Positions 7,924 to 25,491 of a DNA stretch of 31,243 nt are shown in pieces. A model generated the notes under the pieces. It had not been told where the DNA came from. It saw nothing but the letters and a program-made list of their open reading frames with translations, and made no database searches. Numbering within the stretch: position 1 is the first letter of the stretch; each line of letters starts with the position of its first letter. The stretch comes from Phycisphaerae bacterium (GTDB lineage Bacteria; Planctomycetota; Phycisphaerae; UBA1845; Fen-1342): the NCBI GenBank assembly GCA_963675745.2, contig CAXXWX010000018.1, positions 1 to 31,243 on the forward strand, given 5' to 3'. Both the position numbers and the translations under genes were made by a program.

Positions 7924-7949
7924 GGTTAACACTCCCGGCGTTGAAAGTG

Positions 7950-8946: not shown

Positions 8947-8992
8947 TGGCTTTGGGTGCCAGAGGTCGCAGGTTCAAATCCTGTCGCCCCGA
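8947..8992 (+). tRNA. 3' half of tRNA-Pro(TGG); att-site fragment, not an intact gene
   Basis: TGGC-TTTGGGT-GCCA anticodon arm, GAGGTC, GCAGG-TTCAAAT-CCTGT T arm, CGCCCCG-A acceptor strand; no D arm or 5' acceptor strand upstream. Confidence 0.9.
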
Positions 8993-9050
8993 TTCGATGA
9001 CCCCTCCCATATAGCGGCAGAAGCCAGCCCGACATTTCAGTTCGCCACGG
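8991..9050 (+). repeat. Cassette left-end sequence, homologous to 19628-19683
   Basis: GATTCGATGACCCCTCCCATATAGCGGCAG...TTTCAGTTCGCCACGG versus GATTCGAGACCCCTCTATAGCGGCAG...TTTCAGCCTGCCACGG. Confidence 0.8.
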
Positions 9051-9118
9051 CGCCAGTCACTTCGCGGGACAAATATCGCCAAAAACCACGCAAGGGGTGG
9101 CAGAAACTAACACGCTGT

Positions 9119-9150
9119 TTGCCTTCTCAGTTCGGCGTGTGTTAGGATTG
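9119..9150 (+). promoter_or_regulatory. Sigma70-like promoter with overlapping operator-like motif
   Basis: TTGCCT-N18-TAGGAT; contains TCAGTTCG-N5-TGTTAGGATTG, also present at 23544-23567 (-). Confidence 0.6.
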
Positions 9151-9154
9151 CGGT

Positions 9155-10723
9155 ATGCTGGTCGTACCGAGCACATCCCGCGTGAATAACCGACATCGAC
9201 TCGCTAAGGCGAGCCGTCAGGCTGAGATCCCCGTACGCCTCCACGTTGTCGGTGCCGAGCTCAGTCTAGCGACGATGTCGTGGTCGGCCTACTGGAAGCC
9301 GGTTCGGGAATACGTGGAGTACGATCGCCGACTGGTGCATCGGCTGGTCCAGCTCAAGAAGTCCTGGCGGTCCATCCTGCGCTTTCCGACCAGCATGCTT
9401 CACCTACGGATGTACTGCTGGCGGTACTTTCTGCTGTTGCATCAGACGCTGCAGATCGCGCGCACCGAGCCGGAGCGTGGCGATCCGATCCCCATGCTAC
9501 AGCGCATCGTCTCGTTCGAGTCGTTTCCAATCGAGGGTAGGGGACTGCCGGGGATCGCGGGCGGAGCGATGTCCAACCGACACCCGGTCTTCCTGCTCGG
9601 GCGTTTGGCGCCGAATCCTCCGCTGGCGACACCGCGGCACCTTCCGCTGGTTCTGCCACTTGGCCAGACAGATCCACACTACTGTTATCGCCAACTGCGT
9701 CTCTCGACGAAGATGGACAACAGCCTGCTCGTCTTTCCGGCGTCGAACATGTCTCAGCGGGCAGCGAGCTTCGGACCGATCGACCGTGCGGCGCGCTTGC
9801 TCAGCAGCAAGCCGGACCCACATTCCTATCCACGCGCCCGACTTCTTGCTCAGCGAGTCCTGATTCCCATGGCGATGGCGCAGCGCCGTGCCGAGGGGCG
9901 GTTTCGTAGCGGCGCCGTGTCGATACTCGATATCGGAGCGGGCACCGGTCACGTCGTGGCCAACGCTTGGCAGGAGGTGATGGCAAGTGGTCGCCTTGGA
10001 GCTCGGGTCAAGGCGTCACTACATTTCATCGACGCGACTGGACCGTGTGCCGGCCGGTCCTTCGGCTTGTCCCGCGAAGCGAACGGGATTGCCAGTATCG
10101 AGTGGACTACGGCTGACTATCGCACGCTGCTCGACGACGATGCTTGGTTGGACGCGCACCGTCCGATTGAATGGGCGTTCTTTTGTCGCGTCTTGTGTAA
10201 CGCGAGTACGATCACACTGGAGCACGTGGACGTCTGCGAAGAGGACGACAACCACGTGCGGGCGGACTCCAATCCGGCGCGATGCCTTGCCCCACACCGA
10301 CAACTTGATGGGCTGGCGGAGCTCGAGGTCCGCACGGTACGCAGACGCCTGGCAAACGGAATCGTGATGCCGCAGTGGTCTCTGACGAGCTATTTCGCCG
10401 CGATGAACGCCGCGAGTGCCCGCGACGTCGGCGTAGTCACTGACGATCAGTGCTGCATTCCGATTCGGCGCTTCAACCCGGCGGCCTTGATCACGGAGCG
10501 AGGCAAGAGCGTGCTGCATCAACTGCTAAACGTGGCGACCGCAACCGTGATCGAAGACCCTGACATCCTGCCAGCGGACCTCGTTGCGCATGCGCGGCAG
10601 TTCGGGCTCAACGAAGCCAGGATTATCCACTGCACGCAGGATGGCGTTCAGACCGAGGTCGAGCACTATATCGTTGCGAAGCAGAACATCGTGAAACACC
10701 TGCCCGGAGAGCGCCTATGGTAG
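9155..10723 (+). CDS. Uncharacterised protein with a class I SAM-methyltransferase-like domain
   Basis: 522 aa; ILDIGAGTGH motif I followed by LHFID; N-terminal half not recognised; alternative start at 9275. Confidence 0.65.
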   Translation: MLVVPSTSRVNNRHRLAKASRQAEIPVRLHVVGAELSLATMSWSAYWKPVREYVEYDRRLVHRLVQLKKSWRSILRFPTSMLHLRMYCWRYFLLLHQTLQIARTEPERGDPIPMLQRIVSFESFPIEGRGLPGIAGGAMSNRHPVFLLGRLAPNPPLATPRHLPLVLPLGQTDPHYCYRQLRLSTKMDNSLLVFPASNMSQRAASFGPIDRAARLLSSKPDPHSYPRARLLAQRVLIPMAMAQRRAEGRFRSGAVSILDIGAGTGHVVANAWQEVMASGRLGARVKASLHFIDATGPCAGRSFGLSREANGIASIEWTTADYRTLLDDDAWLDAHRPIEWAFFCRVLCNASTITLEHVDVCEEDDNHVRADSNPARCLAPHRQLDGLAELEVRTVRRRLANGIVMPQWSLTSYFAAMNAASARDVGVVTDDQCCIPIRRFNPAALITERGKSVLHQLLNVATATVIEDPDILPADLVAHARQFGLNEARIIHCTQDGVQTEVEHYIVAKQNIVKHLPGERLW

Positions 10724-11697
10724 AGGTCACTCTCCGTCAGCGAAAACCGCCAGTCTTGACGCCGTCGTCGTTGCCGTGTTTGCGGCAGGTGGCGACACTA
10801 AACGTCACCGAGGGCTGCGCGCTGGGTTGCAAGTACTGCTATATCCAGGGCTATTCGCATTACCCCGGCGCCGAGCGGGTCGTTCTGTATGAGAACCTGC
10901 CGGAACTCGTCGCGGCGGAGCTGCAACGAAAACGCCGCAAGCCGCGGCGCGTGTACTTCAGCCCGTCCAGCGATGCCTTTCAGTATCCGCCACAGATCCA
11001 GGACGTGTCGCTGAGGGTCATGCGCGTTCTGCTGGAGGCTGGCGTCGAGGTGGCGTTTCTCACGAAGGGCTTCGTGCGGCGGCCGGTTCTGGAGTTGTTT
11101 GCTGATCATGCCGACGCCGTCTTTGCCCAGATTGGGATCACGACGCTGGATCGCGGACTATGGCGGGCGATCGAGCCGTGCACGGCGCCGCCGGAGATGC
11201 GTATCGCGACAATCGACGCGCTGACCCGGATGGGCGTGCATACAACCGCCCGTCTCGACCCGCTGATTCCCGATCTCGCGGACACGGATGAGAATGTACT
11301 TCCGCTGCTGCGGACTCTAGCCAAGGCCGGCGTTCGCGACGCCGCTGCAAGTTACCTCTTCGTTCGGCCGCCGTTCCTGCGACAAGTCGCCTCGACGCTG
11401 GCAACAGTGGCGCCCGGGGCACCTTCGCCCGCGTCCTGGGCAACGCAGACATTTGCGGTCGGCGCCGGCGGCGGCCGGATGATTGGCCTCGATGAGCGAA
11501 GCCGCAGATTCGCTCGTTTGCAGGCACTGGGGGGCAGTGCCGGCGTTCGCATTCGGCCGTGTCGGTGCAAGAACCCCGAGTTGACCGATGAACCCTGCGC
11601 GATCGCCGGTCCTGCCAACAACGCCATACTTGACGTCCAGAATCAAGGCGAATTCACCTTCATGTCCCCGAACACCCAAGCATCGGTGTCTACGTAA
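10717..11697 (+). CDS. Radical SAM protein, spore-photoproduct-lyase-like family
   Basis: GCALGCKYCY (CxxxCxxC), FSPSSDAFQ, FLTKG, RLDPLIP; overlaps the upstream stop. Confidence 0.88.
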   Translation: MVEVTLRQRKPPVLTPSSLPCLRQVATLNVTEGCALGCKYCYIQGYSHYPGAERVVLYENLPELVAAELQRKRRKPRRVYFSPSSDAFQYPPQIQDVSLRVMRVLLEAGVEVAFLTKGFVRRPVLELFADHADAVFAQIGITTLDRGLWRAIEPCTAPPEMRIATIDALTRMGVHTTARLDPLIPDLADTDENVLPLLRTLAKAGVRDAAASYLFVRPPFLRQVASTLATVAPGAPSPASWATQTFAVGAGGGRMIGLDERSRRFARLQALGGSAGVRIRPCRCKNPELTDEPCAIAGPANNAILDVQNQGEFTFMSPNTQASVST

Positions 11698-11704
11698 ACG
11701 TCTG

Positions 11705-11793
11705 TCACGCATCAAGTAACGCGTCCGTCACGCGTTTGGGCAATCTCCTGGCGGACTCCGCAAAAAGTTCTAACCGTGTCCAGTCACTTCGAT
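11705..11793 (-). repeat. att/tail unit 1 (89 bp), encodes RSDWTRLELFAESARRLPKRVTDALLDA*
   Basis: Core GCAAAAAGTTCTAACCGTGTCCAGTCACTTCGAT; colinear without indels with units 2 and 3. Confidence 0.92.
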
Positions 11794-12038
11794 ACTGAAA
11801 AAACGCGATCGCCAGGGGGACCGGCATGTCGTTGTCTGCGCTTAACTTACGGTTACTGCCAGAATTCCAAACGGCGCAGCACAGACGACAGACGATTCGC
11901 GGCTGATGCGGCGAACTCCCTTTCTAGCAAGGACTTGTCGCAGTTCAAACGACGGGCGAGCGGTCTTCGCAAGGCCGATGCCTGGTTCGCGACTGCCACG
12001 GCGGTGTGCGCCAACGCCTATGGGGTTGGCGCCGCGAT

Positions 12039-12497
12039 CTACCGTGTCCAGACCGCCTCACCGATGACTGCGTCGCCATCCACCTGGGGCAGCGTGTCGG
12101 CCTGAGTGGACCAGATGTCCATGCCACGGCGTGCAAGAAAAGCGTGCAGTCGCGTGGCTTGATGTGAGCGTGTGGTGAAGTAGCCGCTCGAACACACCTT
12201 CAGCCGGAACTGGTCGGCATAGGGCTGCACGTAGTACTTGTCCGTGAAGGCGTAAACGACCACCTCGTATTCACCGGCCAGCGCGACCGCGTCAATCGTA
12301 CCTCCGCAGGCTCGGCCGGCGACAAGCAGCGGAAGCTCATCGGCTGGACGGCTCAGCACCACTAAACTCAGACTCGGTACCGCGTCATCGCTGCAGGCGT
12401 CGACGGCAACCGGCTCCCATAAGCAGCAACCGGTTGCCCCAAACCACGCCAGTGCCCCCAAGCCGGTCAGCATGATGGAATGTTGAATCTGTGACAT
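12039..12497 (-). CDS. Putative lipoprotein/secreted protein
   Basis: AGGGAGGT RBS before ATG 12497; hydrophobic signal ending ATGC (lipobox-like). Confidence 0.65.
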   Translation of the reverse strand: MSQIQHSIMLTGLGALAWFGATGCCLWEPVAVDACSDDAVPSLSLVVLSRPADELPLLVAGRACGGTIDAVALAGEYEVVVYAFTDKYYVQPYADQFRLKVCSSGYFTTRSHQATRLHAFLARRGMDIWSTQADTLPQVDGDAVIGEAVWTR

Positions 12498-12622
12498 TGC
12501 ATACCTCCCTTTGTAACTCCTGCGCCTCAGCACGAGGCGGCGAGGATCTGCTCATCTCCAGTTATCATCGCGCGGCGAGCTCCGCCACGTGATAACCCGA
12601 CGCAAATGGTCGACCCTCAAGG

Positions 12623-13999
12623 TCATGGCAACCACTCCGTATCACCAGCAGTCAATCGATGATCAGCCTCCAACAGTCCATGGGCACACGCCGCTCTGGG
12701 TCTAGCGAGCCCGAAGCGCTCCGGACATCGGGCATCGTATGCCGCCGTGGCCAGCGGTCGCAGATCCGAGCAGCGGTCGTCGAGAATGGCGCAGATGTTG
12801 GCGGCGAGAAGTCCGCCGGCAATCATGTTCGTACCAGGTAGTGTCAAGGCCGGATTGGCTGCGCAACTCGCGCTGTCGCGCTCTTCTGCCACTTTGTCCC
12901 GTAGCCCCGGAATCTGGTGCGCGAGACAGGCGGTGCGGCCGGGCAGACAGACTCGCACCTGTGTCGCCAGCGGCGCACTTCCGGCATCTACGAGCGGCAC
13001 ACCGTCCCGCAGACATTGCTCGCTGAGCCAGTAACGGGCAGCCCAGGTGTCCGGACAGGAAATACGCACGTGCGGCCGTGGCAGGTTACGCGGACGCGCT
13101 TCATACGGGATTGCGTACGGCCTGATCGAGGCGCCCCCAGCTACCGTGTCCGCAAGCCGGGCGGCGAAGGCGTGCGCCTTCGGCCGGCCTACGTCAGCGC
13201 TCGTGTAGGTGATCTGCAAGCCGATGTTCTCGGGCGCGACGTTGTCGAAATCGAACAGGTTCAGCGTGCAGCCTGGCCCAAGCAATGGCACCAGTGCTTC
13301 GACCGTGTGGCAGCCAATGCCGCCGAGCCCGATCACGTCGATCACTTTGCCGCGAAGCGCGACGGCCTGTCCCAGCGCGGGATCGTGCCGTTCGCTACCT
13401 GACATGTCCGGCATGTCGCAGGTCACTACGGGAGCGGGCGGGGCGACCGCGCGGACACGACCGGCGTGGAGAACCGCTTCCTGTAGGGCCAGCCCGGCGG
13501 CTATGCGTGAGATCGGGGAGAAGGGCATTCCAGCCGCACGCGAGCCCGCGTCGGCGCGCGCCGCCGGATCTGTCAGCGCCGATCCGGTCCACATGTTCAC
13601 GCGTGTCGAGCTCCATGTGACGGCCAGGCAGAGCGTTCCCTGAGACGTCGCCTGTCGTAGCCAGGTCTGCGCCGCAGACAGGTCGTTACTCAGGTCGATC
13701 ACGATGTCGGCCGCCGGCATCTGGCGCCAAACCGTCGCGGGTAGCCAACTCCCGGGTTCCTGACAGAACGACGAACCGTCAAGCTCCTTGGCGAGATCGT
13801 TGAAGTACTGGATCGCCCCACACAGCCATACACGCCCGAACCCGACGCCTGTGAGTCCGCGGCAGAGCGCCGCGGCCGGGTGGTACGGCATGACGTTGGC
13901 AGGGACGTCGCCGATCTTGATCACCACCGACGTACGGGCCACTCGATCGACGCTCACGCCGACATCGATGACGCGCTGCAAGGCTGGTGCAAGGGGCAT
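12623..13999 (-). CDS. ThiF/E1-like ubiquitin-activating enzyme with tandem degenerate + active adenylation domains
   Basis: C-half: VIGLGGIGC, FDFDNVAPENI, DVGRPKA, CPDTWAAR, PGRTAC, candidate catalytic SC. N-half has degenerate ThiF elements (LTGVGFGRV, PISRIAAGLALQEAV). Confidence 0.85.
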   Translation of the reverse strand: MPLAPALQRVIDVGVSVDRVARTSVVIKIGDVPANVMPYHPAAALCRGLTGVGFGRVWLCGAIQYFNDLAKELDGSSFCQEPGSWLPATVWRQMPAADIVIDLSNDLSAAQTWLRQATSQGTLCLAVTWSSTRVNMWTGSALTDPAARADAGSRAAGMPFSPISRIAAGLALQEAVLHAGRVRAVAPPAPVVTCDMPDMSGSERHDPALGQAVALRGKVIDVIGLGGIGCHTVEALVPLLGPGCTLNLFDFDNVAPENIGLQITYTSADVGRPKAHAFAARLADTVAGGASIRPYAIPYEARPRNLPRPHVRISCPDTWAARYWLSEQCLRDGVPLVDAGSAPLATQVRVCLPGRTACLAHQIPGLRDKVAEERDSASCAANPALTLPGTNMIAGGLLAANICAILDDRCSDLRPLATAAYDARCPERFGLARPRAACAHGLLEADHRLTAGDTEWLP

Positions 14000-14002
14000 G
14001 TC

Positions 14003-15898
14003 TCACCTCACTTGACGACGTCGTTCATTCGCGTCAGGAAGTCGAATCCGCTCCGAGACTTCCTGCTCCAGTTGCCTTCGCAGCGCCGCGCGCTCCGCCG
14101 TCGTAGGCGATCGGTCGCCGACTAGTGCGAGCTGCACTGGAGCTGCTTCCACGCGGCTTCGCCCACACGAACGACACCAGAGCTTCTTCGCACCATGAAT
14201 CGCAGACTCACCGGAGCCGTTCACGATCAGCGAGAAGGCGACAACACTGTTGACGCGCGCTCCGCGCTGTGTGAGCGTAGGTGCACCGGTGGGCGATCTC
14301 ACCAGGCATGACTGTCGCGAACAGCCGCAGCCAATGGCATCGTGTGCGACGCTCTGCGGATTCGGGTGAACCGCTGCGACGTGCTCGACGAAAACCGAAT
14401 TGAGGAACTCGACGTCGGTCGTCGACATGGCGCAGCCGCCGAGATGCCGATGAACGAAGACGATCGGGATGAGTCGGGCTCCTTGACTCTTGCCGAGCTG
14501 CCGAAACTCGCTCGCCGCCGCGAGTACTTGGTGGCCGGAGACTTCTACTGCATCCGACGCGACTTCCTGGCCTGGAAGGAGGATCATGGTCGTCACACGC
14601 TCTGGCTGTTTCTCGTCGGTGGCTCCGAGCAGGGCGTACTCCAGGTCGGGAGCGCCAAAGCCTCGCGTGAGCACGTCAGCGACGGCGAGACACTTCTCCC
14701 ACGCCAGCCAGTCCATCGTGAGCGTGGACGTTGAGCCAACGTGCAGTGCTGGTGGGACAGCTGAAACACGTGGGCGTGATAGTGGCTTGCTGGGCAGGGG
14801 GCGCCGACTTCTGGCCGCAACCGTCTGCGAGTGCGCGCGTCGCGTGGTTCTGCCGCTGGCAATGCGGGCAGCAGCGTCCAGGAACAACACGACGGCCTCG
14901 GCGTCGGTCCATCGGTCCTCGAGCAAATGCGCATACTGCTGCCGGTTTCCGATACACATCGCGCCTACCGTCGACGTGCCGGCCGTTGACAGGAACGCGG
15001 CAGCGCCGGGTGCCCGTTGTGGCTTGTTCGCAAGCCACTCGCGCCGGGTTTGCCCTTTGATGCGGAGACCCACGTAGAACCGGGCACGCGGGTCTTTCGG
15101 CAATCCCGGCACATACGATTCGGGGCCACGGACAAGCACGAAGCGCCCGTTGCGATACTGCAACTGGTGTCCGACCCCGGAGTAAACCACGCTGTACGCA
15201 CCTTCGGATCGCGGGTGATAGAACGAAAGGACGTCTTCGTATCCACGCTCAAGTTCGGCCGCGGAAATCACGCGGTGGTCAGGCCCACCAGCACGCATTT
15301 TCAGGACTCGCCGGGCTACGTTCCGTACGTGAGCAACGTACTCGGCCTGATGCAGCGGGCGCCTGTCGGGCTGCTGCATGTAGGTTGTTCCCCTGACCTC
15401 GGCGACCGGAATGGCGAAGGCCCAGTCAGCGCGCATCGGCTCCAGGGGAACGGCCAATCGGTTTCCCAGCATACAGGGCGTGCGGAACCAGGCCGCCAAC
15501 TCGTCGACCGTAAACCGTGCGCGCGAGCGGACCGAAGTCGACTGATGTACCGAATGTAATCGCTCGGCGAACGAATCCAGCCGCTGCACTACTTCGCCTG
15601 GACACTGCAGCACGGTGTCGTCGCGGGATTCAAGGTACATGAGATACGGAACCAGGTCGCGAGCACAGAACGCCAGTTCAGCCGGATTCCAGGCGCGATT
15701 CATGGCTGGTCTGTCCGGATCATCAATGAGGTTCCGGGCCGTCCAATCCAGGAGCGCCTGCGCGTGCGCTGAGAGAGATCCGATCCGGTGCCAGCGGACC
15801 GGCGAGTCAGACTCGGCCACCAGAACGTCATCGCCGATCAGGTAGACCGGCCTACGGTCCGCCACCTCGAGGAAGCTCATCCCGACCAAGCCGTGCAT
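14003..15898 (-). CDS. Multidomain protein with C-terminal JAB/MPN peptidase and possible E2-like domain
   Basis: LEYALLG...VFVHRHLGGCAMSTTD (JAMM-like E..HxH..S..D); central GAMCIGN resembles the E2 GxxCxG active-site motif; ATG 15898 with AGGAGAG RBS. Confidence 0.65.
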   Translation of the reverse strand: MHGLVGMSFLEVADRRPVYLIGDDVLVAESDSPVRWHRIGSLSAHAQALLDWTARNLIDDPDRPAMNRAWNPAELAFCARDLVPYLMYLESRDDTVLQCPGEVVQRLDSFAERLHSVHQSTSVRSRARFTVDELAAWFRTPCMLGNRLAVPLEPMRADWAFAIPVAEVRGTTYMQQPDRRPLHQAEYVAHVRNVARRVLKMRAGGPDHRVISAAELERGYEDVLSFYHPRSEGAYSVVYSGVGHQLQYRNGRFVLVRGPESYVPGLPKDPRARFYVGLRIKGQTRREWLANKPQRAPGAAAFLSTAGTSTVGAMCIGNRQQYAHLLEDRWTDAEAVVLFLDAAARIASGRTTRRAHSQTVAARSRRPLPSKPLSRPRVSAVPPALHVGSTSTLTMDWLAWEKCLAVADVLTRGFGAPDLEYALLGATDEKQPERVTTMILLPGQEVASDAVEVSGHQVLAAASEFRQLGKSQGARLIPIVFVHRHLGGCAMSTTDVEFLNSVFVEHVAAVHPNPQSVAHDAIGCGCSRQSCLVRSPTGAPTLTQRGARVNSVVAFSLIVNGSGESAIHGAKKLWCRSCGRSRVEAAPVQLALVGDRSPTTAERAALRRQLEQEVSERIRLPDANERRRQVR

Positions 15899-15909
15899 GA
15901 TCAGCTCTC

Positions 15910-16209
15910 CTATCGGATCCCACCGCGGTACGATTCCGAAATCACCACGGTGAGCACTTCGCAACCTGGCGTCGTGTCGCCGTTCGTGGCTATCGGCAGC
16001 GGACCATCAATCCCGAGTGGTGTGCCGGGTCGCTCCAGGTCGTCACCTGCGCGATAGAACTCGGCATCTAGCGGGCGCTTGCTGGAGAGCACGTCGACGA
16101 TCACCTTCGCGGCGTGCGACGTCGGCGCATCCCCCTGAGCCTGCTCAAAGCCGGACCACCCAAAGCCCGCAGCATCCGCGCCCGACGCCTACTCGCCGGC
16201 TGGAACCAC
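15910..16209 (-). CDS. Candidate ubiquitin-like protein ending ...YRGG-IR*; in-frame TAG at codon 7 if started at 16209
   Basis: AGGAGGT RBS + GTG 16209 in frame with ORF 15910-16104; TAG at 16189-16191; GG two residues before the stop; first gene of the JAB/E1 operon. Confidence 0.55.
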
Positions 16210-16392
16210 GACTACCTCCTCAGCCTCCTGATCCACGACCCAAAACCGAAAACCTGAGAATGCGATCGCCCTGCCCCCCAACCCAGAAGTGTCAACCTAC
16301 GACAGGACCGCACAGTTGGCTGCTTCACCCGGGCTGACGTTGCGCCCCCCTCCCGAACAGGCCCTTCTCGTCGCTGTGCTCCGACTGGCCCC

Positions 16393-16441
16393 GGCAGATT
16401 CAAGATCTCGCCTTGAATCTGCCCGACAGCCACGTTATGGT
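16393..16441 (+). promoter_or_regulatory. Promoter overlapped by a perfect 12-bp inverted repeat
   Basis: GGCAGATTCAAG-N7-CTTGAATCTGCC; TTGAAT-N17-TATGGT ending 7 nt before ATG 16449. Confidence 0.65.
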
Positions 16442-16448
16442 ACGGGCG

Positions 16449-17615
16449 ATGATCGACCGAGACTTGGCCCCAAAACTGCGAGCGGCGGCGAAGCAGGTGC
16501 CGGCGGTGACGCTGACCGGCCCGCGTCAGAGCGGGAAATCTACGCTCTGTCGCATGGTCTTCCCGAAGCACGCGTACGCCAACCTCGAGGCCCCCGACGT
16601 TCGTGCCTTCGCCACCAATGACCCGCGCGGCTTCCTGTCTCAGTTCAGCAAGGGCGCGATCATCGACGAGATCCAGCGTGTGCCCGAGCTCACGTCCTAT
16701 CTGCAGGGCCTGATCGATGAGGACGCTCAGCACGGCCGCTGGGTCCTGACCGGCTCGCAGAGCCTGACGATGATGGAGTCGGTCAGTCAGTCATTGGCTG
16801 GCCGAACTGCGGTGCTTCATCTGATGCCATTAGCCCGCAGCGAGTCCCGGCGATTCAGGCGGTACCCGAAATCGCTGGATGAAGCCCTCTTCACCGGCGG
16901 CTATCCGCGCATCCTGGATCAGCGACTTGAGGCTAGCGAGTGGCTCGGTTCGTACGTTCGGACGTACATCGAGCGCGACGTTCGTCTGATCTCGAATATC
17001 GGCGACCTCACCACGTTCCAGCGATTCGTCCAGCTGTGCGCCAGCCGGACGGCCCAACTGCTGAACCTCTCGTCGCTGGCGCTGGACGCCGGTGTTTCGC
17101 AACCAACCGCGAAGGCCTGGCTGTCGATCCTGGAAAGCACGTTCATTGCGTTTCGGTTGCAGCCGTATTTCGGGAACATCGGCAAGCGCCTGATCAAGAC
17201 GCCTAAGTTGCACTTCTACGATACGGGCTTGGTGTGCTGGTTGCTGGGAATCCGCGATCCATCGCAACTCCGCCTGCACCCGCTCCGCGGCGCCATCTTC
17301 GAAACGTGGGTTCTCTCGGAGATCCTCAAGCACCGGCTAAATCGCGGCGAGCACGCCGGTCTCTACTTCTACCGTGATCGACATGGTCTTGAAGCGGATG
17401 TCGTCATCGAGGATGGGCAGAGGCTGACGGTTGTGGAGGCAAAGTCCGGCCAGACAGCCACGACAGAGCTGGTTAACGCAGGTCGACAGGTCGCGGAAAT
17501 CCTCGGTGACGCGGCGCGAGTAGACCGCATCGTCGTGTTCGGCGGCGAACGCGGACAGCGACGGAGCAATGTGAGTATTCTGTCGTGGGATGCCGTGGAC
17601 CAGCAGAAGTGGTAG
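16449..17615 (+). CDS. AAA+ ATPase with DUF4143 domain (COG1373-like)
   Basis: GPRQSGKST, IIDEIQRVP, LTGSQ, GGYP, KTPKLHFYDTGL, C-terminal EAD...VEAKSG. Confidence 0.92.
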   Translation: MIDRDLAPKLRAAAKQVPAVTLTGPRQSGKSTLCRMVFPKHAYANLEAPDVRAFATNDPRGFLSQFSKGAIIDEIQRVPELTSYLQGLIDEDAQHGRWVLTGSQSLTMMESVSQSLAGRTAVLHLMPLARSESRRFRRYPKSLDEALFTGGYPRILDQRLEASEWLGSYVRTYIERDVRLISNIGDLTTFQRFVQLCASRTAQLLNLSSLALDAGVSQPTAKAWLSILESTFIAFRLQPYFGNIGKRLIKTPKLHFYDTGLVCWLLGIRDPSQLRLHPLRGAIFETWVLSEILKHRLNRGEHAGLYFYRDRHGLEADVVIEDGQRLTVVEAKSGQTATTELVNAGRQVAEILGDAARVDRIVVFGGERGQRRSNVSILSWDAVDQQKW

Positions 17616-17732
17616 ACGGCAAAGCGGCGGATAGGTCTTGAAGCTGCGAATGCCTGTTGCTCTCACCTCCGTAGCGTGATTGCAGAGGAGGTGAATTCGG
17701 AGTATGTTCGGGTCGAGTCTCACTCCGGCAGT

Positions 17733-19031
17733 TGAAACTATGAAGCGGAGGTCGCCCCAGGGTGTGAGGCATCCCGGGGCCGTGGTACACCGTGGTCCGT
17801 TGTCCCGGACCATTGTTTCCACACAAGGAGCCTCCCATGAACTTCGTCGGTGTCGACCTCCACAAGAAGACCGCCGTGGTGTGCGTTGTGAACCAGGCCC
17901 GCCAGATCCTGGCGACCCGTCGTCTGGCGTGTAGCGACCCGGACGGCATCCGGAAGTGGTTTGCCACCCTGGAGTCGTTTCAGGTCGTGGTCGAGGCTAC
18001 GGCCAGCTACGAATGGTTCGTGCAACTGGTCGAGCCGCTGGCGGACCGGGTGGTGCTGGCCCACCCTGGCAAGCTGCGGGTCATCGCAGAGACTACGCGC
18101 AAGAGCGACAAGCTCGACGCCAAGTGCTGGCTGAATTCCTCGCGCTCGACATGATTCCCGAAGCCTATCGGCCGGCGCCGCGACAGCGGGAGCACCGCCA
18201 GTGGGTTCGCCACCGTCAGTATCTGCGCGTCCGTGTTGCATCGATCCGGAACCGCCTGCGGCGGGCCTTCTCGAATTACAACGCGGATCGGCCGGCGCTG
18301 TTTACGGCGGCCGGACGGAAGGCAAGCGCGGCCATCGAGCTTTCAGGCGTCGACCGCTTCGCGGTGAACCAGCTCTGGCGTGAACTGGAGTTCTTTGAAG
18401 AGCAACTGGGCGAGGTGCACAAAGCTCTGCAGCAGTTCGCGGCAAAGGCGCCGTCGGCCGAGGCCGCGGCCCGCCGGTTGCTGCGGAGCATCCCGGGGGT
18501 CGGCGAGATCACCACGGAGGTGTTCCTGGCCGAGGTGGCCGACGTGCGCCGCTTCCGGTCGCAGAAGCGGGTCGTGGCCTACGCCGGGCTGGCGCCGACA
18601 GTTCGCGAATCGGCCGGTCGACGACACGAACTGGGCATTACGCACGCCGGTTCGCGGCTCCTGCGATGGGTGGTTTGCCAAGCGGCCTGGCAACTCGTGC
18701 TTCGGGATGCCCATTGGCGACGCATCTTCGAGGCGCTTGCCGCCCGGCGTGGTCGCAAGCGGGCGATCACGGCGGTGGCCCGCCGTTTGTTGTGCGTAAT
18801 GACGTCGATGGTGATGAACGGGCAGGAGTATCGGCACGCCGCCTGACCGGGTGACGCGAAGAAACGGGGATTGACTGGGCCGGGGCGTTCTCGGCCGACC
18901 ACGGAGAAGTCGAGTGAGGGACGTGGACGGAACGACTTTGCGGGCGACCCCGGCAGTGACCATGAGCGTGCGCCCTTCGCGACGCTCGGCGAGTTGAATG
19001 GTGGCGCCCGTCGCATTCGCTTTTCATGGGA
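17733..19031 (+). mobile_element. IS110-family element (possibly IS1111 type); ends approximate
   Basis: IS110 transposase, ~180-bp downstream non-coding region, weak subterminal inverted repeats (ATGAAGCGG at 17740; TCGCTTTTCAT ending 19027). Confidence 0.65.
17837..18846 (+). pseudogene. IS110 transposase with a 1-bp frameshift near 18124
   Basis: AAGGAG RBS; MNFVGVDLHK, VVEAT, KSDKLDA in one frame, continuing as VLAEFL...SIPGVG...YAGLAP..RESAG in another; adding one G (AAG GTG) restores the frame. Confidence 0.88.
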
Positions 19032-19541
19032 CGACTGCATCGTGGCCTGGGTCACGACGGTCGATCCCGAATAGATGGTTGAGCGTTCTGTTTCGCCGGC
19101 CCCCGCTCGAGATTACCAGGAGTGGCAACCCCAGCGGCAAGATGCCCGCAGAGGGTCTCCCTCCGCCTCAGGCTCTGGGAATGTGCGAGAGAGTGCCCGG
19201 CCGTGCGACGCCGGCTGAAATGGGCAGGTTGACCGACGCCGACGGCGACGGGAACGTGCGAAGGCTCTCTCGCCAAACCCTGCACGCCCCACTTGACTTC
19301 GTCCGCTTCGTCGATGGAGAGAAACCCGAGAAAGCCGCCGCCTGATCACAACGCCATCAACGACTTTTGACAATAGCTCGCGCATCCGTCTTCAGTGCCG
19401 CTTCGACGTCCCGGCAGGCCTCGCTCATCTGCTCCGGCTCCACCGGCCCCGACACGATCGGTGTCCCGCGTAGTTCCAACCGGGGCGATTTCAGCTTCGC
19501 GGGCATCTGGGAAGACATCCAAGACGTCTTCTAAACTCTTG

Positions 19542-19630
19542 TCATGCCGCCAGTAACGCTTCGGCGACGCGCTGTGGGAGGCTGGACGCCCCTGCCGCAA
19601 AAAGTTCTAACCGTGTCCAGTTGCTTCGAT
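19542..19630 (-). repeat. att/tail unit 2 (89 bp), encodes RSNWTRLELFAAGASSLPQRVAEALLAA*
   Basis: Core GCAAAAAGTTCTAACCGTGTCCAGTTGCTTCGAT. Confidence 0.92.
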
Positions 19631-19794
19631 TCGAGACCCCTCTATAGCGGCAGGAATCTGCGCATGTTTTCAGCCTGCCACGGAATTCTCCGGTCGGGAG
19701 GTGATTTCTCGCGCTACTGCGCGACTCCGCCGCTCTGCAATGTGGCCGACCCTGTTCCTGGTCCAGTGTCGGCAACGGGCTGCGCGGCGGACTA

Positions 19795-22233
19795 TCAGCC
19801 GGCGCAGCATCCTGGTTTCGGCAGATCGGCGCCGCCACGGCTAGACAGCCCGTAGAGGCGCATCACCTGCCGGTCAATCCTGCTCAGAAGCGCAGGGCGA
19901 CGCGATGGCACCGTGTTGTCGTCAACAAGCGCGGCAGCACACTGCGCAACGGCAGCGCAGATCTTTGCATCTACTTGCTCGCCTGCTATGGGGAGCGGGG
20001 CGCGGCGTAGTGTCTCAAGCCGCAGTGCGTACTGTCCTTCGCCCATGGGAATCGCTCGATGTCTCAGATACTCCTGCATGGGCGAGCTGTTCAGGACGCC
20101 GAGCAGATAGTAGGGGTCGATAGCCTTCGAAGGGAACCCGATCACGATGACGCTATTGTGGCACAGAACGCCATCGGCATCGAACGCGAAGCTGCCAGGG
20201 CGGCCGATCGCGCTTGCAACGATCTTTGGCGCGGCCATTGCCGGTTTCACGTTCACCCTTCGCAAAGCGTACCACGGTCGCTCGGGGTGCATCCGTCGCT
20301 TCAATAGCGGCGACCGTTTCGAGGACAGATACTCGTAAGCGCGCGTGTATTTTCCGGAGAGCCTGTCTTCATCAAGGACGTTGCCCCGGCGATCGTACGG
20401 AAACACGCAGACATGCTGTGGCGCACATTTCCCATACGCGGAGATTCCACGACCGCGGAGCATGGGCACGATCGCGCCCTCTTCCAGCTCAATCTCCTTT
20501 CCGTCTGCCCGGGGCCGTGCGATGACGTGTCCGGAATTCGTCTCAGACACCCGCTGTAAAACGAAGATGTTGTCGGCGCCGGTGCATACTCCGTATGAGA
20601 CGGCAACGGGCAGCCTCGCCAGCGCCGTCCCGACAGACTCCATTTGTTCGAGCAGCGTACGGCATTCGGGCGAGTGGAATCGCCATTCATCGGCCGCCAA
20701 TGCGCATGATGGAATAGGACGCACGACGACCTCCCGATGAGGACCGGCTGATCGGAATAGCGAAGCCAGCTTGTCACGGCACCCACCAGCACCTCTCAGA
20801 GACACATATCGGGAACAGGATCGTTCGTTCGTTTTCCACGCCGTCAACAACGTTGAATGGGCGCTGGCGTCAGGGTAGATGTTCCGATCATCGAACTCCA
20901 CAATCTCGATGACGCGACACTTACTCGATATGAGTTGCCGCAGTGCCCTGCCGCTCTTGTTGCGAAGAAACGCCCCGGAAACGACAGTCGCTAAGCAGCC
21001 GCCGGGAGTCAGCATCTCCAGGGCACGCTCTATGAAGAGCATGTAGAGGTCGAACTGGCCGCTCTGGGCAGTGGCAAACCTGCTGCGGTAATGCTCGATC
21101 TGGCGCTTTTGGCCTCGGTGGAGTCGCTCAAGGCGTACAAAGGGCGGGGCTCCGAGAATGACATTCGGCCGATCCGCTCGGCCCTCAATCGCGCGCACCC
21201 GCAGGAAGTCAGCGCAGCGAACGCCCCTGGCAACTGACTGGATTCGCCGGGTACCCTGGTAATCAGTGCGCTGGGTGAGACAGCTTTCCCAAGCGGTTAG
21301 TAAGAGGCTCTGAAGCGCGAGGGCTGCCGCGACGCGATCCACATCGAAGCCGCGGATGCCGCGCGAGAGGTGGTGCAGCACGTCCGGCGCTCTGAGTGTA
21401 CCCCCCGTTCCAATGAGGAATCGCAACGCAGCCACCAGGAACCCTCCGGCACCGCAGGATGGATCGAGGATGCGCAGCGCGTCCGCCTCGACCCGCTGTT
21501 CGTCCGTCATGAACTTCAGCGCCCGGTGGGTCAGATAGTCAACCAACGGTGCCGGTGTGTAGTGGATACCAAGGTTGCGCCTGGTGCCTCTTGAGCGCCA
21601 AATGGTGGTCGCCTGCGTCTGTTCCACGGACAATTGATGGTAATCTCCAAACACGGTTACCGGTACGTTTGCTCCGTAGACGCAGCATGTCTCGTCGACC
21701 ACACGAGATACCCAATCGCGTTTGACGATACTGCCAGGTATTCGCAGGTCGAAAGAGGATGGCCTGAGGGTGAACGTGGACCGCAAGAGCGGATCTTTGA
21801 TCGCGCGACGTACGGCCCGGTAAAGGCCGTGAACCGACGGACGCGCCGCCCGGCGCAAGCACGCGCCGATGGACGGCGCGATCACTGGATTACGCGCGCA
21901 AATAAAGGTCTGCAGCAATGCAAGGTGGATGATGGCGTCGGTGGCGAACTCAATGGTCCGCGACCCGCTGCGTTTCGGACATGCGGCGCGCCACTCGGCG
22001 ACGATTTCTCGTCGCAGTTCGCGGAGAAACCGTTGGTAAGTGCGCCGCTGCTCCGTCGAAGGGCCGGCGGCACCTTCCAGCAAGTATGGTAGTCTCCGAC
22101 CGAGCGCCGTAGTAGCGGGCATTCCAACAGTCCATCGGCTGTGCCTCGTCCCGCACTCGCGGGACGCGCCGATGGCGGCGCTGCGGCACTGCTTGTCCAG
22201 TAGATTAATGGCCGCGCCACCCGAGATGGGCAA
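19795..22233 (-). CDS. Eco57I/TaqI-like (type IIG-related) N6-adenine DNA methyltransferase homolog with atypical motif IV
   Basis: GIHYTPAPLV, ILDPSCGAGGFL, GFDVD, ILGAPPFV (for GNPPY), FDLYMLFIERA, TaqI-C-like YLLGVLNSS; start may be ATG 22122. Confidence 0.85.
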   Translation of the reverse strand: MPISGGAAINLLDKQCRSAAIGASRECGTRHSRWTVGMPATTALGRRLPYLLEGAAGPSTEQRRTYQRFLRELRREIVAEWRAACPKRSGSRTIEFATDAIIHLALLQTFICARNPVIAPSIGACLRRAARPSVHGLYRAVRRAIKDPLLRSTFTLRPSSFDLRIPGSIVKRDWVSRVVDETCCVYGANVPVTVFGDYHQLSVEQTQATTIWRSRGTRRNLGIHYTPAPLVDYLTHRALKFMTDEQRVEADALRILDPSCGAGGFLVAALRFLIGTGGTLRAPDVLHHLSRGIRGFDVDRVAAALALQSLLLTAWESCLTQRTDYQGTRRIQSVARGVRCADFLRVRAIEGRADRPNVILGAPPFVRLERLHRGQKRQIEHYRSRFATAQSGQFDLYMLFIERALEMLTPGGCLATVVSGAFLRNKSGRALRQLISSKCRVIEIVEFDDRNIYPDASAHSTLLTAWKTNERSCSRYVSLRGAGGCRDKLASLFRSAGPHREVVVRPIPSCALAADEWRFHSPECRTLLEQMESVGTALARLPVAVSYGVCTGADNIFVLQRVSETNSGHVIARPRADGKEIELEEGAIVPMLRGRGISAYGKCAPQHVCVFPYDRRGNVLDEDRLSGKYTRAYEYLSSKRSPLLKRRMHPERPWYALRRVNVKPAMAAPKIVASAIGRPGSFAFDADGVLCHNSVIVIGFPSKAIDPYYLLGVLNSSPMQEYLRHRAIPMGEGQYALRLETLRRAPLPIAGEQVDAKICAAVAQCAAALVDDNTVPSRRPALLSRIDRQVMRLYGLSSRGGADLPKPGCCAG

Positions 22234-22336
22234 CTCCGACGGAACTGATTGCTGCTCACTGCCGCGTTTAGTGAAGCTGCTGACGTGTTTCGTGAGCGCC
22301 GCGCCGACGCCGGACGCAACAACAGGCGACCGGCAA

Positions 22337-23515
22337 TCACAGCACGCAGTTGCAGCGCCCGATGGCGGAGGCTAGCCCTACCGCGTCGAAGATAGCCCGC
22401 TCCTCAAGGCAGAGCCCCACATCAAGACCGGGCTGCATTTCACGGATCACGTCAAGTAGATGCCGATATATGCGTACCCGAATGTCGGCAGCGTAGCGTG
22501 CCCGGCCGTCGCCAGATTTGGTCATCGGTCGCCCCGAAACAAACGTGATAGCAGTTGAGACGCCCAGCTTCGCTTCGGTGAGGCGCGCCGCGTTCGGGTA
22601 GCTGCATATCCCACCGAGCGTGAGGCGATCGAGGCGCACGGTTGTGAGAAGCTCCATCAGGAATCGCTCATAGACACTCTGCCAGTCGGTGATCGGGATG
22701 ATCGGCATGATCACCGCGCGCACCGGATATCCCGCCGCCGCGCATCGGCGCATCGCCTCGATTCGACGCTCGACGGGGGGCACGTTGGCTTCGAACTCGG
22801 CGACAACTTCGCGCGGGTTCAGACTCCACGACAGAATCGTGTGGCCGGCGTGCGGCGGGTCCATCAGATTCTCGACGTCCGCCGCCTTCGTCAGCACAAC
22901 GAGGCGCGCCAGCGGATGGTCCGCAAAGAACGGGATCATGACGCGCGAATAGCCCGTCAGAGGATCCAACGCGAGTCCGTCCTGGAGCTTGCCCAGGTAG
23001 AACGCCGTCCGGCGACCGGCCTTGCGGGCAACGCGGTGTATCCGGTCCAGCACTTCGGGCAGGTTCAGGAATATCTTGACCGTCGGCGAGAAGTAGACGC
23101 CGCGCGTACCCGCCAGATAGCAGTACGTGCAGCCATACGGACAGAAGCCATACGGGGAAAAATGCCAGTAATTGGGGCAGCAGTTGTCGCGCTCCTGGCT
23201 GAGCCCGACGGCGCTCTTGTGCTCGCCCAGCACGAGCGTGTTCTTTCCACGCCGAAGTGCCTCCAGTGGGCCTGTGCAACCGAGATCAACCCGATTGTGC
23301 GGGCGGCCTTCCTGCTCCCAGACCTGCGCCTCAGGGTGAATCTGGCAGATACGCTCAACGAAACGCCGACGCTGCGAATTGGACCGGCTTCCCTTCGTCA
23401 GGACGATCCGCTTTGGGGAGAAATGGGCGGGTCTTCGGGGTACGTAGCGTTCGGTGCACGCAAAGAGCCCGCTCAAGTTCTGTTCCGCAGCCCTCATGCG
23501 CATGCCGCCTTGCAC
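22337..23515 (-). CDS. Radical SAM protein, spore photoproduct lyase (SplB)-like
   Basis: FCPYGCTYCYL, DGLALDPLTG, LTKA, ILSWSLNP, GYPVRAVIMPII; start approximate (23503 or 23497 possible). Confidence 0.88.
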   Translation of the reverse strand: MQGGMRMRAAEQNLSGLFACTERYVPRRPAHFSPKRIVLTKGSRSNSQRRRFVERICQIHPEAQVWEQEGRPHNRVDLGCTGPLEALRRGKNTLVLGEHKSAVGLSQERDNCCPNYWHFSPYGFCPYGCTYCYLAGTRGVYFSPTVKIFLNLPEVLDRIHRVARKAGRRTAFYLGKLQDGLALDPLTGYSRVMIPFFADHPLARLVVLTKAADVENLMDPPHAGHTILSWSLNPREVVAEFEANVPPVERRIEAMRRCAAAGYPVRAVIMPIIPITDWQSVYERFLMELLTTVRLDRLTLGGICSYPNAARLTEAKLGVSTAITFVSGRPMTKSGDGRARYAADIRVRIYRHLLDVIREMQPGLDVGLCLEERAIFDAVGLASAIGRCNCVL

Positions 23516-23543
23516 GCCGCGTCTCCCAGCGAGTGGAGCGAAC

Positions 23544-23574
23544 CAATCCTAACATTAAGCGAACTGATGTTCAA
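23544..23574 (-). promoter_or_regulatory. Sigma70-like promoter with LexA-box-like motifs
   Basis: TTGAAC-N17-TAGGAT with extended TG; contains GAAC-N4-GTTC (23561-23572) and TCAGTTCG-N5-TGTTAGGATTG. Confidence 0.65.
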
Positions 23575-23684
23575 CCGTGCGGCGAAGGCCCAGCGGTTCC
23601 GTCTCATCCGCCGCGGGGTCCGGGCCGCCGCCATAGCATTCCGGGCTCTCCTGGCAACTGGGCCAAACGCGACGTAACATCCTG

Positions 23685-23753
23685 TCATGCCGCCAGTAAC
23701 GCCTCGGAGATCCGTGGTGGCAGGTCGGCGGCGCCGGCCGCGAAAAGTTCTAA
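23685..23753 (-). repeat. att/tail unit 3, left part (continues at 25348-25367 after the IS1380); encodes RSNWTRLELFAAGAADLPPRISEALLAA*
   Basis: Removing the IS and one CTAA copy rebuilds an 89-bp unit colinear with units 1 and 2. Confidence 0.92.
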
Positions 23754-25343
23754 CCCGGATTATTCACGGTTGAGTTGAAAGAGCGGCCTTCGTGTGGTCT
23801 AACTGGTTTTGACCAAACAAGTTGAACCGTGCACGGAGGCCGCCGATGTTTGAACAGACTGAAGCTCAGTTGTTCTTCTCGTTTTTCGCCGATCGCAAGC
23901 TGATTGTCCAGCGTCACGCCGGACAAATTTCCTCGGACGCCGGGCTGTTGCCGATTCGGCAGTTGGACCAGCGGCTGCGTTTTACCGCGCGGCTGGTCGC
24001 CGGCCTGAGCGATGACCGTCACGAACCGCGGCACACACAGCTCGAGATGTTGCGTCAGCGGCTCTACGGAATCCTGGCCGACTACGAAGACTGCAATGAT
24101 CACGACACGCTCCGTGATGATCCGATCTTCAAGATCGTCGCCGATCGATTGCCCGAAGACGATCCGCTCGCCAGCCAGCCCACGCTATCGCGTTTCGAGA
24201 ACGCCGTCACGATCGACACGCTGTGGCAAACGCTCGACTTCCTGGTCGCGACCGGGATCGAGCGGCTGCGGGAGAAGAACGAGGGCCAAATGCCCGATCG
24301 CCTCACGCTCGATCTCGACGCCACCGACGATCCGGCGCACGGGCAGCAGCAATTGGCGTTGTTCCACGGCTACTACGAGCAACACCAATACTTCCCGATC
24401 GTGATCAGCGAGCCGACCACGCAGCACGTGTTCTACGCCGCCCTGCGGCCGGGCAGTGTGCACGCCGCTCACGGTGCCGACGATGACCTGGAATTCGTGG
24501 TCGAGCGTCTGCACGCCGCCCGCGGCGACCTTGCGATTCACGTTCGCGGCGACAGCGGCTTCGGCGTGCCATCGATGTACAAAATCTGCGAGAAAAACCG
24601 ACTGACGTACACGTTCGGCATCGGCGCCAACAAACGGCTGCAGGCCCTGGCCCAGCCGTTACTCGACCGAGCCGTCGCCGAATACGAACACACCGGCGTC
24701 AAGCAACGCTCGTTCACGCACTTCAGCTACCAGGCCGGCTCGTGGGATCGGCCACGCGCTGTGATCGCCAAGGCCGAGTGCCAGGCGGCCGGCACGAACC
24801 TGCGCTTCGTGGTCACCAATCTACAGGTGAACTCCGACGCCGACGCGCAGCGTGTTTACGACGACTACATCCAACGCGGCACAAGCGAACAACGCTTCGA
24901 TGAACTCAAGAACGGTCTGCACGCCGACCGGCTGAGTTGTCATCGCTTCGTGGCCAACTTCTGGCGTCTGCTGCTGCACACGGCGGCGTTCAACCTGTTG
25001 AACTGGTTGCGTGATGACGAGCAGGTGCCGGAGACGTTGCGTACCGCCCAGCCGGCCACGTGGCGGAGTCGCGTGATCAAAGTGGCGGCAACGGTCATCC
25101 AGTCGGCTCGGCGGGTGGTCGTGGCGATTGCTGGCCAGTGGCCACACTGGTCGACTCTTCACACCGTCGCCGTCCGCAGTGGCGCCATCCCCGCCGGCCC
25201 GTAACCCCACCGAAAACCCGCGCCGTCCATCGGGGGAAAGGGGGTCCTGCGCGCCGAATCGCAACACACCCCTCCAATCAACGCCAAACCGCACCGCACC
25301 ATACGCACACACCAAGCAAAAGCCTGACGGTGAATAATGCGGG
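23754..25343 (+). mobile_element. IS1380-family insertion sequence, 1590 bp, 4-bp target duplication CTAA
   Basis: IRL CCCGGATTATTCACGGT; IRR (reverse complement) CCCGCATTATTCACCGT; CTAA at 23750-23753 and 25344-25347. Confidence 0.95.
23846..25204 (+). CDS. IS1380-family DDE transposase
   Basis: GQISSDAGLL, LASQPTLSRFEN, DLDATDDPAHGQQ, RGDSGF, YIQRGTSEQRFDELK; GGAGG RBS before ATG 23846. Confidence 0.93.
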   Translation: MFEQTEAQLFFSFFADRKLIVQRHAGQISSDAGLLPIRQLDQRLRFTARLVAGLSDDRHEPRHTQLEMLRQRLYGILADYEDCNDHDTLRDDPIFKIVADRLPEDDPLASQPTLSRFENAVTIDTLWQTLDFLVATGIERLREKNEGQMPDRLTLDLDATDDPAHGQQQLALFHGYYEQHQYFPIVISEPTTQHVFYAALRPGSVHAAHGADDDLEFVVERLHAARGDLAIHVRGDSGFGVPSMYKICEKNRLTYTFGIGANKRLQALAQPLLDRAVAEYEHTGVKQRSFTHFSYQAGSWDRPRAVIAKAECQAAGTNLRFVVTNLQVNSDADAQRVYDDYIQRGTSEQRFDELKNGLHADRLSCHRFVANFWRLLLHTAAFNLLNWLRDDEQVPETLRTAQPATWRSRVIKVAATVIQSARRVVVAIAGQWPHWSTLHTVAVRSGAIPAGP

Positions 25344-25347
25344 CTAA

Positions 25348-25491
25348 CCGTGTCCAGTTACTTCGATCTTTCGCAGAAACGGGCCCTTCGGCGAGAACGT
25401 CGAAGGGCTTTCTTATTTCGGGAACGAGAGTTACGCCGTCGAGGCGAACGTTCAAACACACGATCTCGAGCAAGCGGCGCTTGGCGCGGTG
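25348..25491 (-). pseudogene. 3' remnant of a large serine recombinase-type gene
   Basis: HRAKRRLLEIVCLNVRLDGVTLVPEIRKPFDVLAEGPVSAKDRSNWTR, recognised as the C-terminal region of tRNA-associated large serine recombinases; catalytic N-terminal region absent. Confidence 0.7.

Follow-up and report, generated by a model that had tools for sequence, protein, structure and literature searches.

The contig studied here (31,243 bp, CAXXWX010000018.1, from a Phycisphaerae bacterium; the window below is this entire contig) carries, behind a fragment of a tRNA-Pro(UGG) gene, three cassettes that each end in a repeat unit of about 89-92 nt, and this unit is homologous to the 3' ends of large serine recombinase (LSR) genes. 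We read the region, with a probability of about 0.72, as an accretion array of integrative elements of a tRNA-Pro-specific LSR family, in which cassettes without a recombinase of their own have been stacked. The evidence comes from the window's own genome (G000, whose assembly is 91% complete, the window being its contig C18) and from relatives; G-numbers denote genomes, C-numbers contigs, L-numbers fetched loci and X-numbers public sequencing runs. An earlier, sequence-only reading of this DNA had described such an array and called it a serine-recombinase analogue of an integron; its anatomy proved largely right, and its interpretation is supported in part.

The repeat unit and its recombinase reading frame

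Repeat search and alignment both place the right ends of the three units at 11793, 19630 and 25367 and align them without indels, as the sequence-only reading had stated. The window copies agree at 68-79% of their first 81 positions and at 92-96% of the last 24, and blastn E-values among the 1.5-kb segments upstream range from 1e-9 to 1e-24, far beyond chance. Unit 3 is broken at 23753/23754 by an insertion sequence (IS), whose junctions show terminal inverted repeats and a short duplication of the target. Four further copies on contigs C10 and C12 bring the genome total to seven, and G000 has arrays at all three of its tRNA-Pro loci; the final 251 nt of cassette B are 96.8% identical to a stretch of C12. 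The earlier claim that the last 15 nt of the unit match the end of tRNA-Pro is weak taken alone, since unit 1 agrees at 11 of 15 positions, and we accept the shared end as real because the cassette boundaries in other genomes fall exactly there. These boundaries also bear out a crossover at or beside CGAT.

The unit has the properties of coding sequence. On the minus strand, each G000 unit reads RS(D/N)WTRLELFA...ALLAA*, with the stop at one conserved place, and sites that vary among the seven units fall about twice as often in the third codon position (222 vs 124 and 106; column-permutation P 0.0012), a signature that reaches P 7e-5 in 14 units from four genomes. No long open reading frame (ORF) was found upstream of the unit at any copy, in G000 or in relatives. 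P0003, a partial protein of 224 aa that is cut by a contig edge and ends in ...KRKPFSLLAERLPVRTSRSDWTRLELFAAGATGLPPRVADALLAA, came up in a word-indexed search with 40 residues, the unit 2 peptide among them. Among its longer homologues, 67 of 69 carry PF00239, PF07508 and PF13408 (Resolvase, Recombinase and zinc-ribbon), and the great majority are about 499 aa long with the C-terminus ...SRGD(R/W)I. The unit-encoded peptide is, judged from sequence, an alternative C-terminal tail of an LSR.

The window also holds the adjoining part of such a gene, an LSR 3'-end remnant of about 41 codons. It shares its frame with unit 3, and if the first codons of that unit are counted it has about 46. In a tblastn search of the whole genome, window 25485-25348 (minus strand) aligned with residues 467-512 of a 523-aa LSR of G021 at 71.7% over 46 aa (E 7e-11), and the remnant is 46.8% identical to P0003. 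Thus, both the in-frame recombinase remnant and the origin of the unit from a serine recombinase gene end, as first proposed from the letters of the window, stand. The stretch 25368-25491 would be the P' half of an attP-like site. Its codons RKPFDVLAE (25380-25420) form a hairpin rich in GC, behind which the tRNA strand is T-rich, and in relatives this hairpin is found immediately behind tRNA-Pro. It looks like a tRNA-Pro terminator, and the sequence may serve two purposes.

Two other frames of G000 were considered and rejected. A 757-aa frame on C16, the only Resolvase-family match in the genome, is not the cognate enzyme, since 13 family LSRs gave no tblastn match there. A 564-aa ORF across tRNA-Pro(CGG) on C10, which might have been an SSV1-like arrangement, encodes a class III aminotransferase and reads through into a tail whose frame differs from that of the unit.

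Half-sites, intact elements and moving cassettes

In all 17 units compared, and in four distant P arms, 27 nt separate the start of a GTTCNAA box from the unit end, whereas the distance from the start of the T-loop GTTCRAR to the corresponding point is 22 nt in 91 of 91 tRNA-Pro genes. In serine integrases, the zinc-ribbon motif is described as lying 5 bp nearer the centre in attB than in attP half-sites (PMC3783163). The 5-bp shift of the box would therefore distinguish attP-type from attB-type half-sites, and the unit would imitate the 3' end of tRNA-Pro, which agrees with the mimicry noted earlier. By eye, the junction of unit 3 and the LSR remnant looks dyad-symmetric, and the right half-sites at the other junctions are mutually unlike.

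Relatives show what lies to the right of the array in more complete form. About 100 nt to the right of unit 3 are present in 25 of 72 family genomes. In 24 of 29 fetched loci, this flank stands directly behind an intact tRNA-Pro; of the other five, two have a unit in front of the flank, one has a tRNA-Ser (L039), one has a 14-nt tRNA-end fragment, and one is unrelated. The trailers behind tRNA-Pro are, on their reading frame, the last codons of LSR genes. An LSR frame terminates in antisense tRNA-Pro in 22 of the 29 family loci, with 13 of these frames 497-620 aa long. In a wider sample of 80 loci, nearly all from Planctomycetota, 44 frames end in antisense tRNA-Pro and 2 in antisense tRNA-Gln(CTG), 10 run off the locus, and 24 are without a tRNA call. 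Among these 24 are at least 10 ORFs of 519-603 aa with non-tRNA tails, several of which read (T/R)(P/R)(I/L/V)ELF, as in the WTRLELF of the unit, in LSRs that are only about 55% identical to one another. One scan of genome contigs gave 206 relatives of the family.

In relatives, intact members of the family are convergent to tRNA-Pro and belong to sizeable elements. The tRNA-adjacent modules of relatives encode LSRs with all three LSR domains together with ParB, a resolvase of about 197 aa and a TrwC relaxase; ParB occurs in G069 (both elements), G004 and G034, the small resolvase in G069 only, and both are absent from the window. In the complete genome G069, two units belong to the LSR element adjoining tRNA-Pro(UGG), with their ends 40.6 and 42.1 kb away from this tRNA, and the element adjoining tRNA-Pro(GGG) has one unit, 55.1 kb away. 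These units are uniform in orientation and have in-frame tails RGDSTP(V/I)ELF.... They were found with a relaxed 10-position pattern that also gave three false matches (two in a methylase gene, one at e2:38134). The strict AAGTT... pattern gave two chance matches only, a 17-unit nhmmer profile had no match at E <= 10 in 19 LSR-adjacent regions, and a search for repeats of the tRNA end that allowed 5 mismatches in 20 found none. Because the LSRs end in antisense tRNA-Pro and the far ends of the elements carry tail-coding units, attP is placed inside the LSR gene. The two tail-coding units at the far end of the approximately 40-kb element (e1; G069:C1 ~2392900-2394400) lie 1.5 kb apart, and this pair looks like a mini-cassette behind an intact element.

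The cassettes themselves recur across genera. Cassette A is 89.8% identical over 2818 nt to a segment of G028:C109, where a unit stands on both sides, and 86.2% identical over 1023 nt, up to the contig end, to one of G024:C184, where a unit precedes it; the flanking chromosomal genes are 65-70% identical, so that cassette A is about 20 points more similar. Its exact boundaries are the same in the three genomes, with different left neighbours (the tRNA fragment or a unit). This comparison supports movement of cassette A between genera as a module that lacks a recombinase. For cassette C, identity to the counterpart on G031:C20 is 77.5% over 3833 nt, with the same boundaries but different neighbours; there it stands immediately behind an intact tRNA-Pro(UGG), and a unit with an LSR remnant closes it on the right. 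Pfam finds no site-specific recombinase within 8994-25367, only the IS110-family Transposase_20 and DDE_Tnp_1_4 domains, and none is encoded in the cassettes examined of G000, G024, G028 and G031. The earlier observation that the three segments have no recombinase besides IS transposases is thus upheld. Number and order of cassettes vary among relatives, which the sequence-only reading had named as a check; in a 636-nt contig of public run X11, for example, a unit-1-like end is joined to an LSR 3' end, which is another cassette order in a relative.

A joint of 8993 to 25382 in the public runs has 14 foreign letters at its middle and no more than 26 letters on one of its sides, and it was rejected as an excision product; its most likely source is another locus where tRNA-Pro adjoins an LSR, or another organism. 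Separately, G000:C20:40918-44693 and G000:C12:1-1928 are 87-94% identical to L025 (G024:C329) 1-5331, with flanking genes at about 65%; this is another mobile segment shared by two genera, joined differently to an L-box cassette (the L-box is described below).

In the model that we favour, attP would lie inside the LSR gene about 29 codons before its stop, the unit being the P arm with those codons and the gene body the P' arm. Integration at the 3' end of tRNA-Pro would place the LSR convergent to the tRNA, with its frame ending in antisense tRNA (...SRGDRI*), and would send the unit to the far end of the element. The remnant, 46 LSR codons at 25348-25491, would be what is left of the oldest element in the window. 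Cassettes C, B and A, each with a unit at its right end, would then have been inserted successively at the tRNA-proximal junction, and as the last event a satellite with a tyrosine integrase (island X) would have entered the tRNA itself. The cassettes would be non-autonomous, resembling cis-mobilizable elements (CIMEs) or staphylococcal cassette chromosome (SCC) elements, and the LSR would be supplied by an autonomous relative.

Cargo and surroundings of the array

Features of the array and its surroundings are collected in Table 1. Each cassette has two to six ORFs on both strands, and the cassette proteins for which the table gives no PADLOC result had no PADLOC match. Cassettes A and C begin with the L-box, a conserved non-coding stretch after the crossover that is also present at four other places and nowhere else in the genome; it adjoins the crossover in cassettes whose cargo is unrelated. 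The possibility that the L-box is decayed LSR coding sequence was rejected, since the indels among its copies have lengths not divisible by three and a stop lies 7 codons upstream of one copy. Just past the L-box of cassette A, 60 nt into the cassette at window 9053-9066, 12 nt repeat the end of unit 1 exactly (CCAGTCACTTCG); this may be chance, or what remains of a mini-cassette since deleted. The final gene ahead of a unit is repeatedly a radical SAM gene (window 9155-11697; L026 5784-8893; L022 7609-9702), and the partners of these genes are either the 522-aa protein of unknown family or DpdF/RecQ-like and DpdE/SNF2-like helicases. These pairings may represent an uncharacterized DNA-modification or defence module.

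Table 1. Features of the window, in coordinates of the 31,243-bp contig; a part without a strand of its own is listed under that of its island or cassette
Feature	Position	Strand	Basis or remark
Island X (context of the array, outside it)	1-8940	-	Pfam PF00589, PF05065, PF05119, PF13481 + PF01807
Island X, tyrosine integrase fragment	2-799	-	continues off contig
Island X, capsid, HK97-type	1729-3078	-	Pfam
Island X, small terminase	4503-4937	-	Pfam
Island X, primase/AAA_25 protein	5645-7663	-	Pfam
3' fragment of tRNA-Pro(UGG)	8947-8993	+	comparison with intact genes of relatives
Cassette A	8994-11793	+	Pfam; sequence comparison with G028, G024
Cassette A, L-box at left end	8994-9050	+	sequence
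Cassette A, 522-aa protein, unknown family	9155-10723	+	Pfam
Cassette A, radical SAM protein	10717-11697	+	Pfam
Unit 1	11705-11793	+	ends cassette A
Cassette B	11794-19630	+	Pfam, PADLOC
Cassette B, 164-aa ORF	12039-12533	-	ORF
Cassette B, ThiF/E1-like	12623-13999	-	Pfam; weak PADLOC E1-E2/BilD matches
Cassette B, 653-aa unknown	14003-15964	-	ORF
Cassette B, DUF4143 ATPase, PADLOC PDC-S01	16413-17615	+	PADLOC E 5e-105
Cassette B, IS110-family transposase domain (Transposase_20)	17956-18846	+	Pfam
Unit 2	19542-19630	+	ends cassette B
Cassette C	19631-25367	+	Pfam, PADLOC; sequence comparison with G031
Cassette C, L-box	19631-19683	+	sequence
Cassette C, Eco57I/type II-IIG-like methyltransferase, 812 aa	19795-22233	-	Pfam, PADLOC
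Cassette C, SPL-like radical SAM	22337-23515	-	Pfam
Unit 3	23685-23753 + 25348-25367	+	split by IS; ends cassette C
IS element inside unit 3	23754-25347	+	DDE_Tnp_1_4 transposase 23822-25204 (Pfam E 6e-124)
LSR gene 3'-end remnant	25368-25491	-	~41 codons, ~46 including first codons of unit 3; frame shared with that unit

The array is headed on its left by a tRNA fragment that reaches from the anticodon stem to one base beyond the discriminator of tRNA-Pro(UGG). Tyrosine integrase, capsid, terminase and primase genes lie to the left of the array, and the fragment is therefore the ordinary right-end repeat of island X. It is the attR repeat of this island and would also be the B-type half-site at the head of the cassettes. 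Island X sits in tRNA-Pro(UGG) with a repeat of about 47 nt, the intact tRNA and the remainder of the integrase being off the contig; its 1-8940 part has neither a large terminase nor tail genes, and it resembles a phage satellite. No intact tRNA was called in the window by ARAGORN or Rfam, and tRNA-Pro(UGG) was not found in the assembly, where the Pro isoacceptors called among 47 tRNAs are GGG and CGG only. A CNNM gene on C19 was considered as the missing upstream flank of tRNA-Pro(UGG) and rejected, as no tRNA stands beside CNNM in the assembly. At the other end of the window, an ORF of more than 1099 aa (27943-31242, minus strand) has seven FG-GAP repeats, Chlamydia PMP repeats and a dockerin domain; repeat families D1, D3 and D4 are due to repeats of 40 nt and 67 nt within this ORF, and the units make up D2 and D5.

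Competing explanations and known systems

Several observations weigh against accretion by an LSR. No intact cognate LSR was found in the 91%-complete G000, where 13 family LSRs gave no tblastn match outside C18; for this reason the array is probably inactive, a fossil, in this genome, and action in trans is something that we, like the sequence-only reading, infer. None of the 72 family genomes has a full-length LSR with the window's own unit type, and every LSR that abuts such a unit is a remnant (G000, G031, G008, L116, L117), the truncated P0003 excepted. Canonical serine integrases are described as recombining attP with attB only (PMC3783163), a rule that insertion at the junction of tRNA and P' arm, which equals attL, would break. 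To the right of the crossover nothing is conserved among the cassettes (L-box, LSR 3' end, others); insertions appear to use a tRNA end or a unit joined to anything, as if the left half-sites (tRNA end, unit) alone mattered. Cassette C is little more similar to its G031 counterpart than the flanks are (77.5% vs 68-75%), so that vertical descent explains it as well. Finally, no circular junction or excised form was found in the public runs, which are mixed-sample contigs with short sides at most joints.

Other explanations compete with ours. One may argue that every segment was once an autonomous LSR element that decayed in place, that shared cassettes descended vertically, and that nothing moved without its own recombinase. 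The LSR remnant in the window, short LSR-like stretches behind some C10 units, and the equal placement of cassette C and the remnant in G000 and G031 at near-background identity fit this account, but the exact boundaries of cassette A beside differing left neighbours, its excess of about 20 points over the flanking genes, and a non-coding L-box that abuts the crossover beside unrelated cargo, with indels that are not multiples of three, render it improbable. Alternatively, the locus might be a true capture platform, in which a resident LSR convergent to tRNA-Pro works like an integron integrase and cassettes enter between tRNA and LSR, each giving the enzyme a new functional tail. An LSR or its remnant always adjoins the last unit, the ELF tail motif is kept among LSRs of about 55% identity (with at least 10 ORFs having non-tRNA tails), the units have a coding signature, and the L-box left end occurs only at cassette starts, all of which this account would explain. 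However, intact LSRs head 40-55-kb elements with relaxase, ParB, resolvase and a far-end unit of their own, genomes have several LSR copies, one at each tRNA-Pro, the LSR adjacent to an array is a remnant in the window, G031, G008, L116 and L117, and neither promoter nor expression logic is in evidence, and we consider a capture platform of this kind quite unlikely. We give almost no credence to the view that the units are attC-like folded sites of another enzyme, or the ends of a transposon or IS, for which the IS110-family gene of cassette B would be a candidate. An IS110-family domain does lie 700 nt upstream of unit 2, but such a gene is missing beside all other copies (units 1 and 3 and the four elsewhere in the genome), for which reason IS110 was rejected as the mover; when six units were folded as single-stranded DNA, neither an attC-like hairpin nor unusual folding appeared (z-scores -0.95 to +1.92 vs shuffles), and the unit is homologous to LSR 3' ends.

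Accretion of LSR-driven elements and recombinase-less cassettes thus remains the preferred reading. A more far-reaching form of it, which we mention as a speculation with the odds clearly against it, would make the swap of the last ~29 LSR codons a switch. The tRNA-fused (...SRGDRI*) and unit-tailed (...ELF...) forms would differ in activity or directionality, a recombinase-less cassette landing beside a resident LSR would re-arm its tail, and LSR and tRNA-Pro together would form a self-regulating platform for the capture of defence cargo across Planctomycetota, with one conserved half-site per partner, against the attP x attB rule.

The accretion reading would explain a recurrent type of variable region in Planctomycetota, where one widespread LSR family lands at all three tRNA-Pro genes and packets without a recombinase accumulate defence-like and DNA-modification cargo, such as PDC-S01, the type II/IIG methyltransferase, radical SAM pairs and, in a relative, DpdE/DpdF-like helicases. 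In addition, the T-loop box shifted by 5 bp provides natural attP/attB pairs of a tRNA-targeting integrase family, possibly of use as a tool.

A literature search on serine recombinases at tRNA-Pro in Planctomycetes found no account of this system among the papers listed. The array resembles several known systems. The likeness to an integron seized upon by the sequence-only reading consists in a row of recombinase-less packets, each ending in a conserved site on one side of the crossover. It does not extend to a tyrosine IntI, folded attC hairpins, an attI with a Pc promoter or mostly single promoterless ORFs: the array-associated recombinase is of the serine type (the tyrosine integrase at 2-799 belongs to island X), the units lack an attC-like fold, the cassettes have several genes on both strands, and intact LSRs reside in elements resembling integrative and conjugative or integrative and mobilizable elements (relaxase, ParB, small resolvase) rather than in a fixed capture platform. 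In SCC composite islands, LSR-driven cassettes stack at the 3' end of one gene, and ccr-less pseudo-SCC elements depend on others; unlike the array here, SCC targets rlmH/orfX, uses the CcrAB pair or CcrC, and has a recombinase gene that does not span the attachment site. CIMEs and the accretion-mobilization of streptococcal integrative and conjugative elements offer a further parallel, as CIMEs have att sites on both sides but no genes for recombination or transfer, and stand in tandem with autonomous elements. The window cassettes are likewise att-flanked and without such genes, as in the CIME definition, whereas the streptococcal systems use tyrosine integrases. An attP inside the integrase gene, with integration at a tRNA altering or removing the C-terminus, is found in Mx8 intP/intX and SSV1-type integrases; these are tyrosine recombinases, whereas here a serine recombinase would have only its last ~29 codons swapped.

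In design, the closest known counterpart is formed by the ssrA islands of Dehalococcoides. As described, these islands stand in tandem behind a tRNA-like gene and are bounded by repeats of its 3' end; DsiB, a serine recombinase of about 540 aa, is encoded on the reverse strand beside attL, its 3' end is reported always to overlap attL, and the stop falls in the tRNA-like gene or in the neighbouring island (PMC3146451). Among the components of the integration module there are a ~200-aa serine recombinase and a ParB protein, and fifteen islands without the module are read as cis-mobilizable elements (PMC3146451). On this account, tandem LSR islands, members without a module and a recombinase gene overlapping attL were already known, and the novelty claimed in the sequence-only reading does not hold for them. 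Shared with the present system are tandem islands bounded by tRNA-like 3'-end repeats, a reverse-strand LSR overlapping attL and, in relatives, the small serine recombinase and ParB module, which is absent from the window. The target differs, being tRNA-Pro (all three isoacceptors) and not ssrA, as do the host, Planctomycetota, and the TrwC relaxase in relatives. What is added here is a 3' fragment homologous to LSR tails, its coding signature, and a T-loop-like box shifted by 5 bp. McMurdie et al. raised in 2011 the possibility that nothing but the circle, or a neighbouring island that supplies the 3' fragment, makes the gene complete (PMC3146451). Because the fragment has a codon-position signature and its tail ELF motif is common to distant members of the family, our comparison lends sequence-level support to this idea, and the far-end 3' fragment would be a real part of the recombinase.

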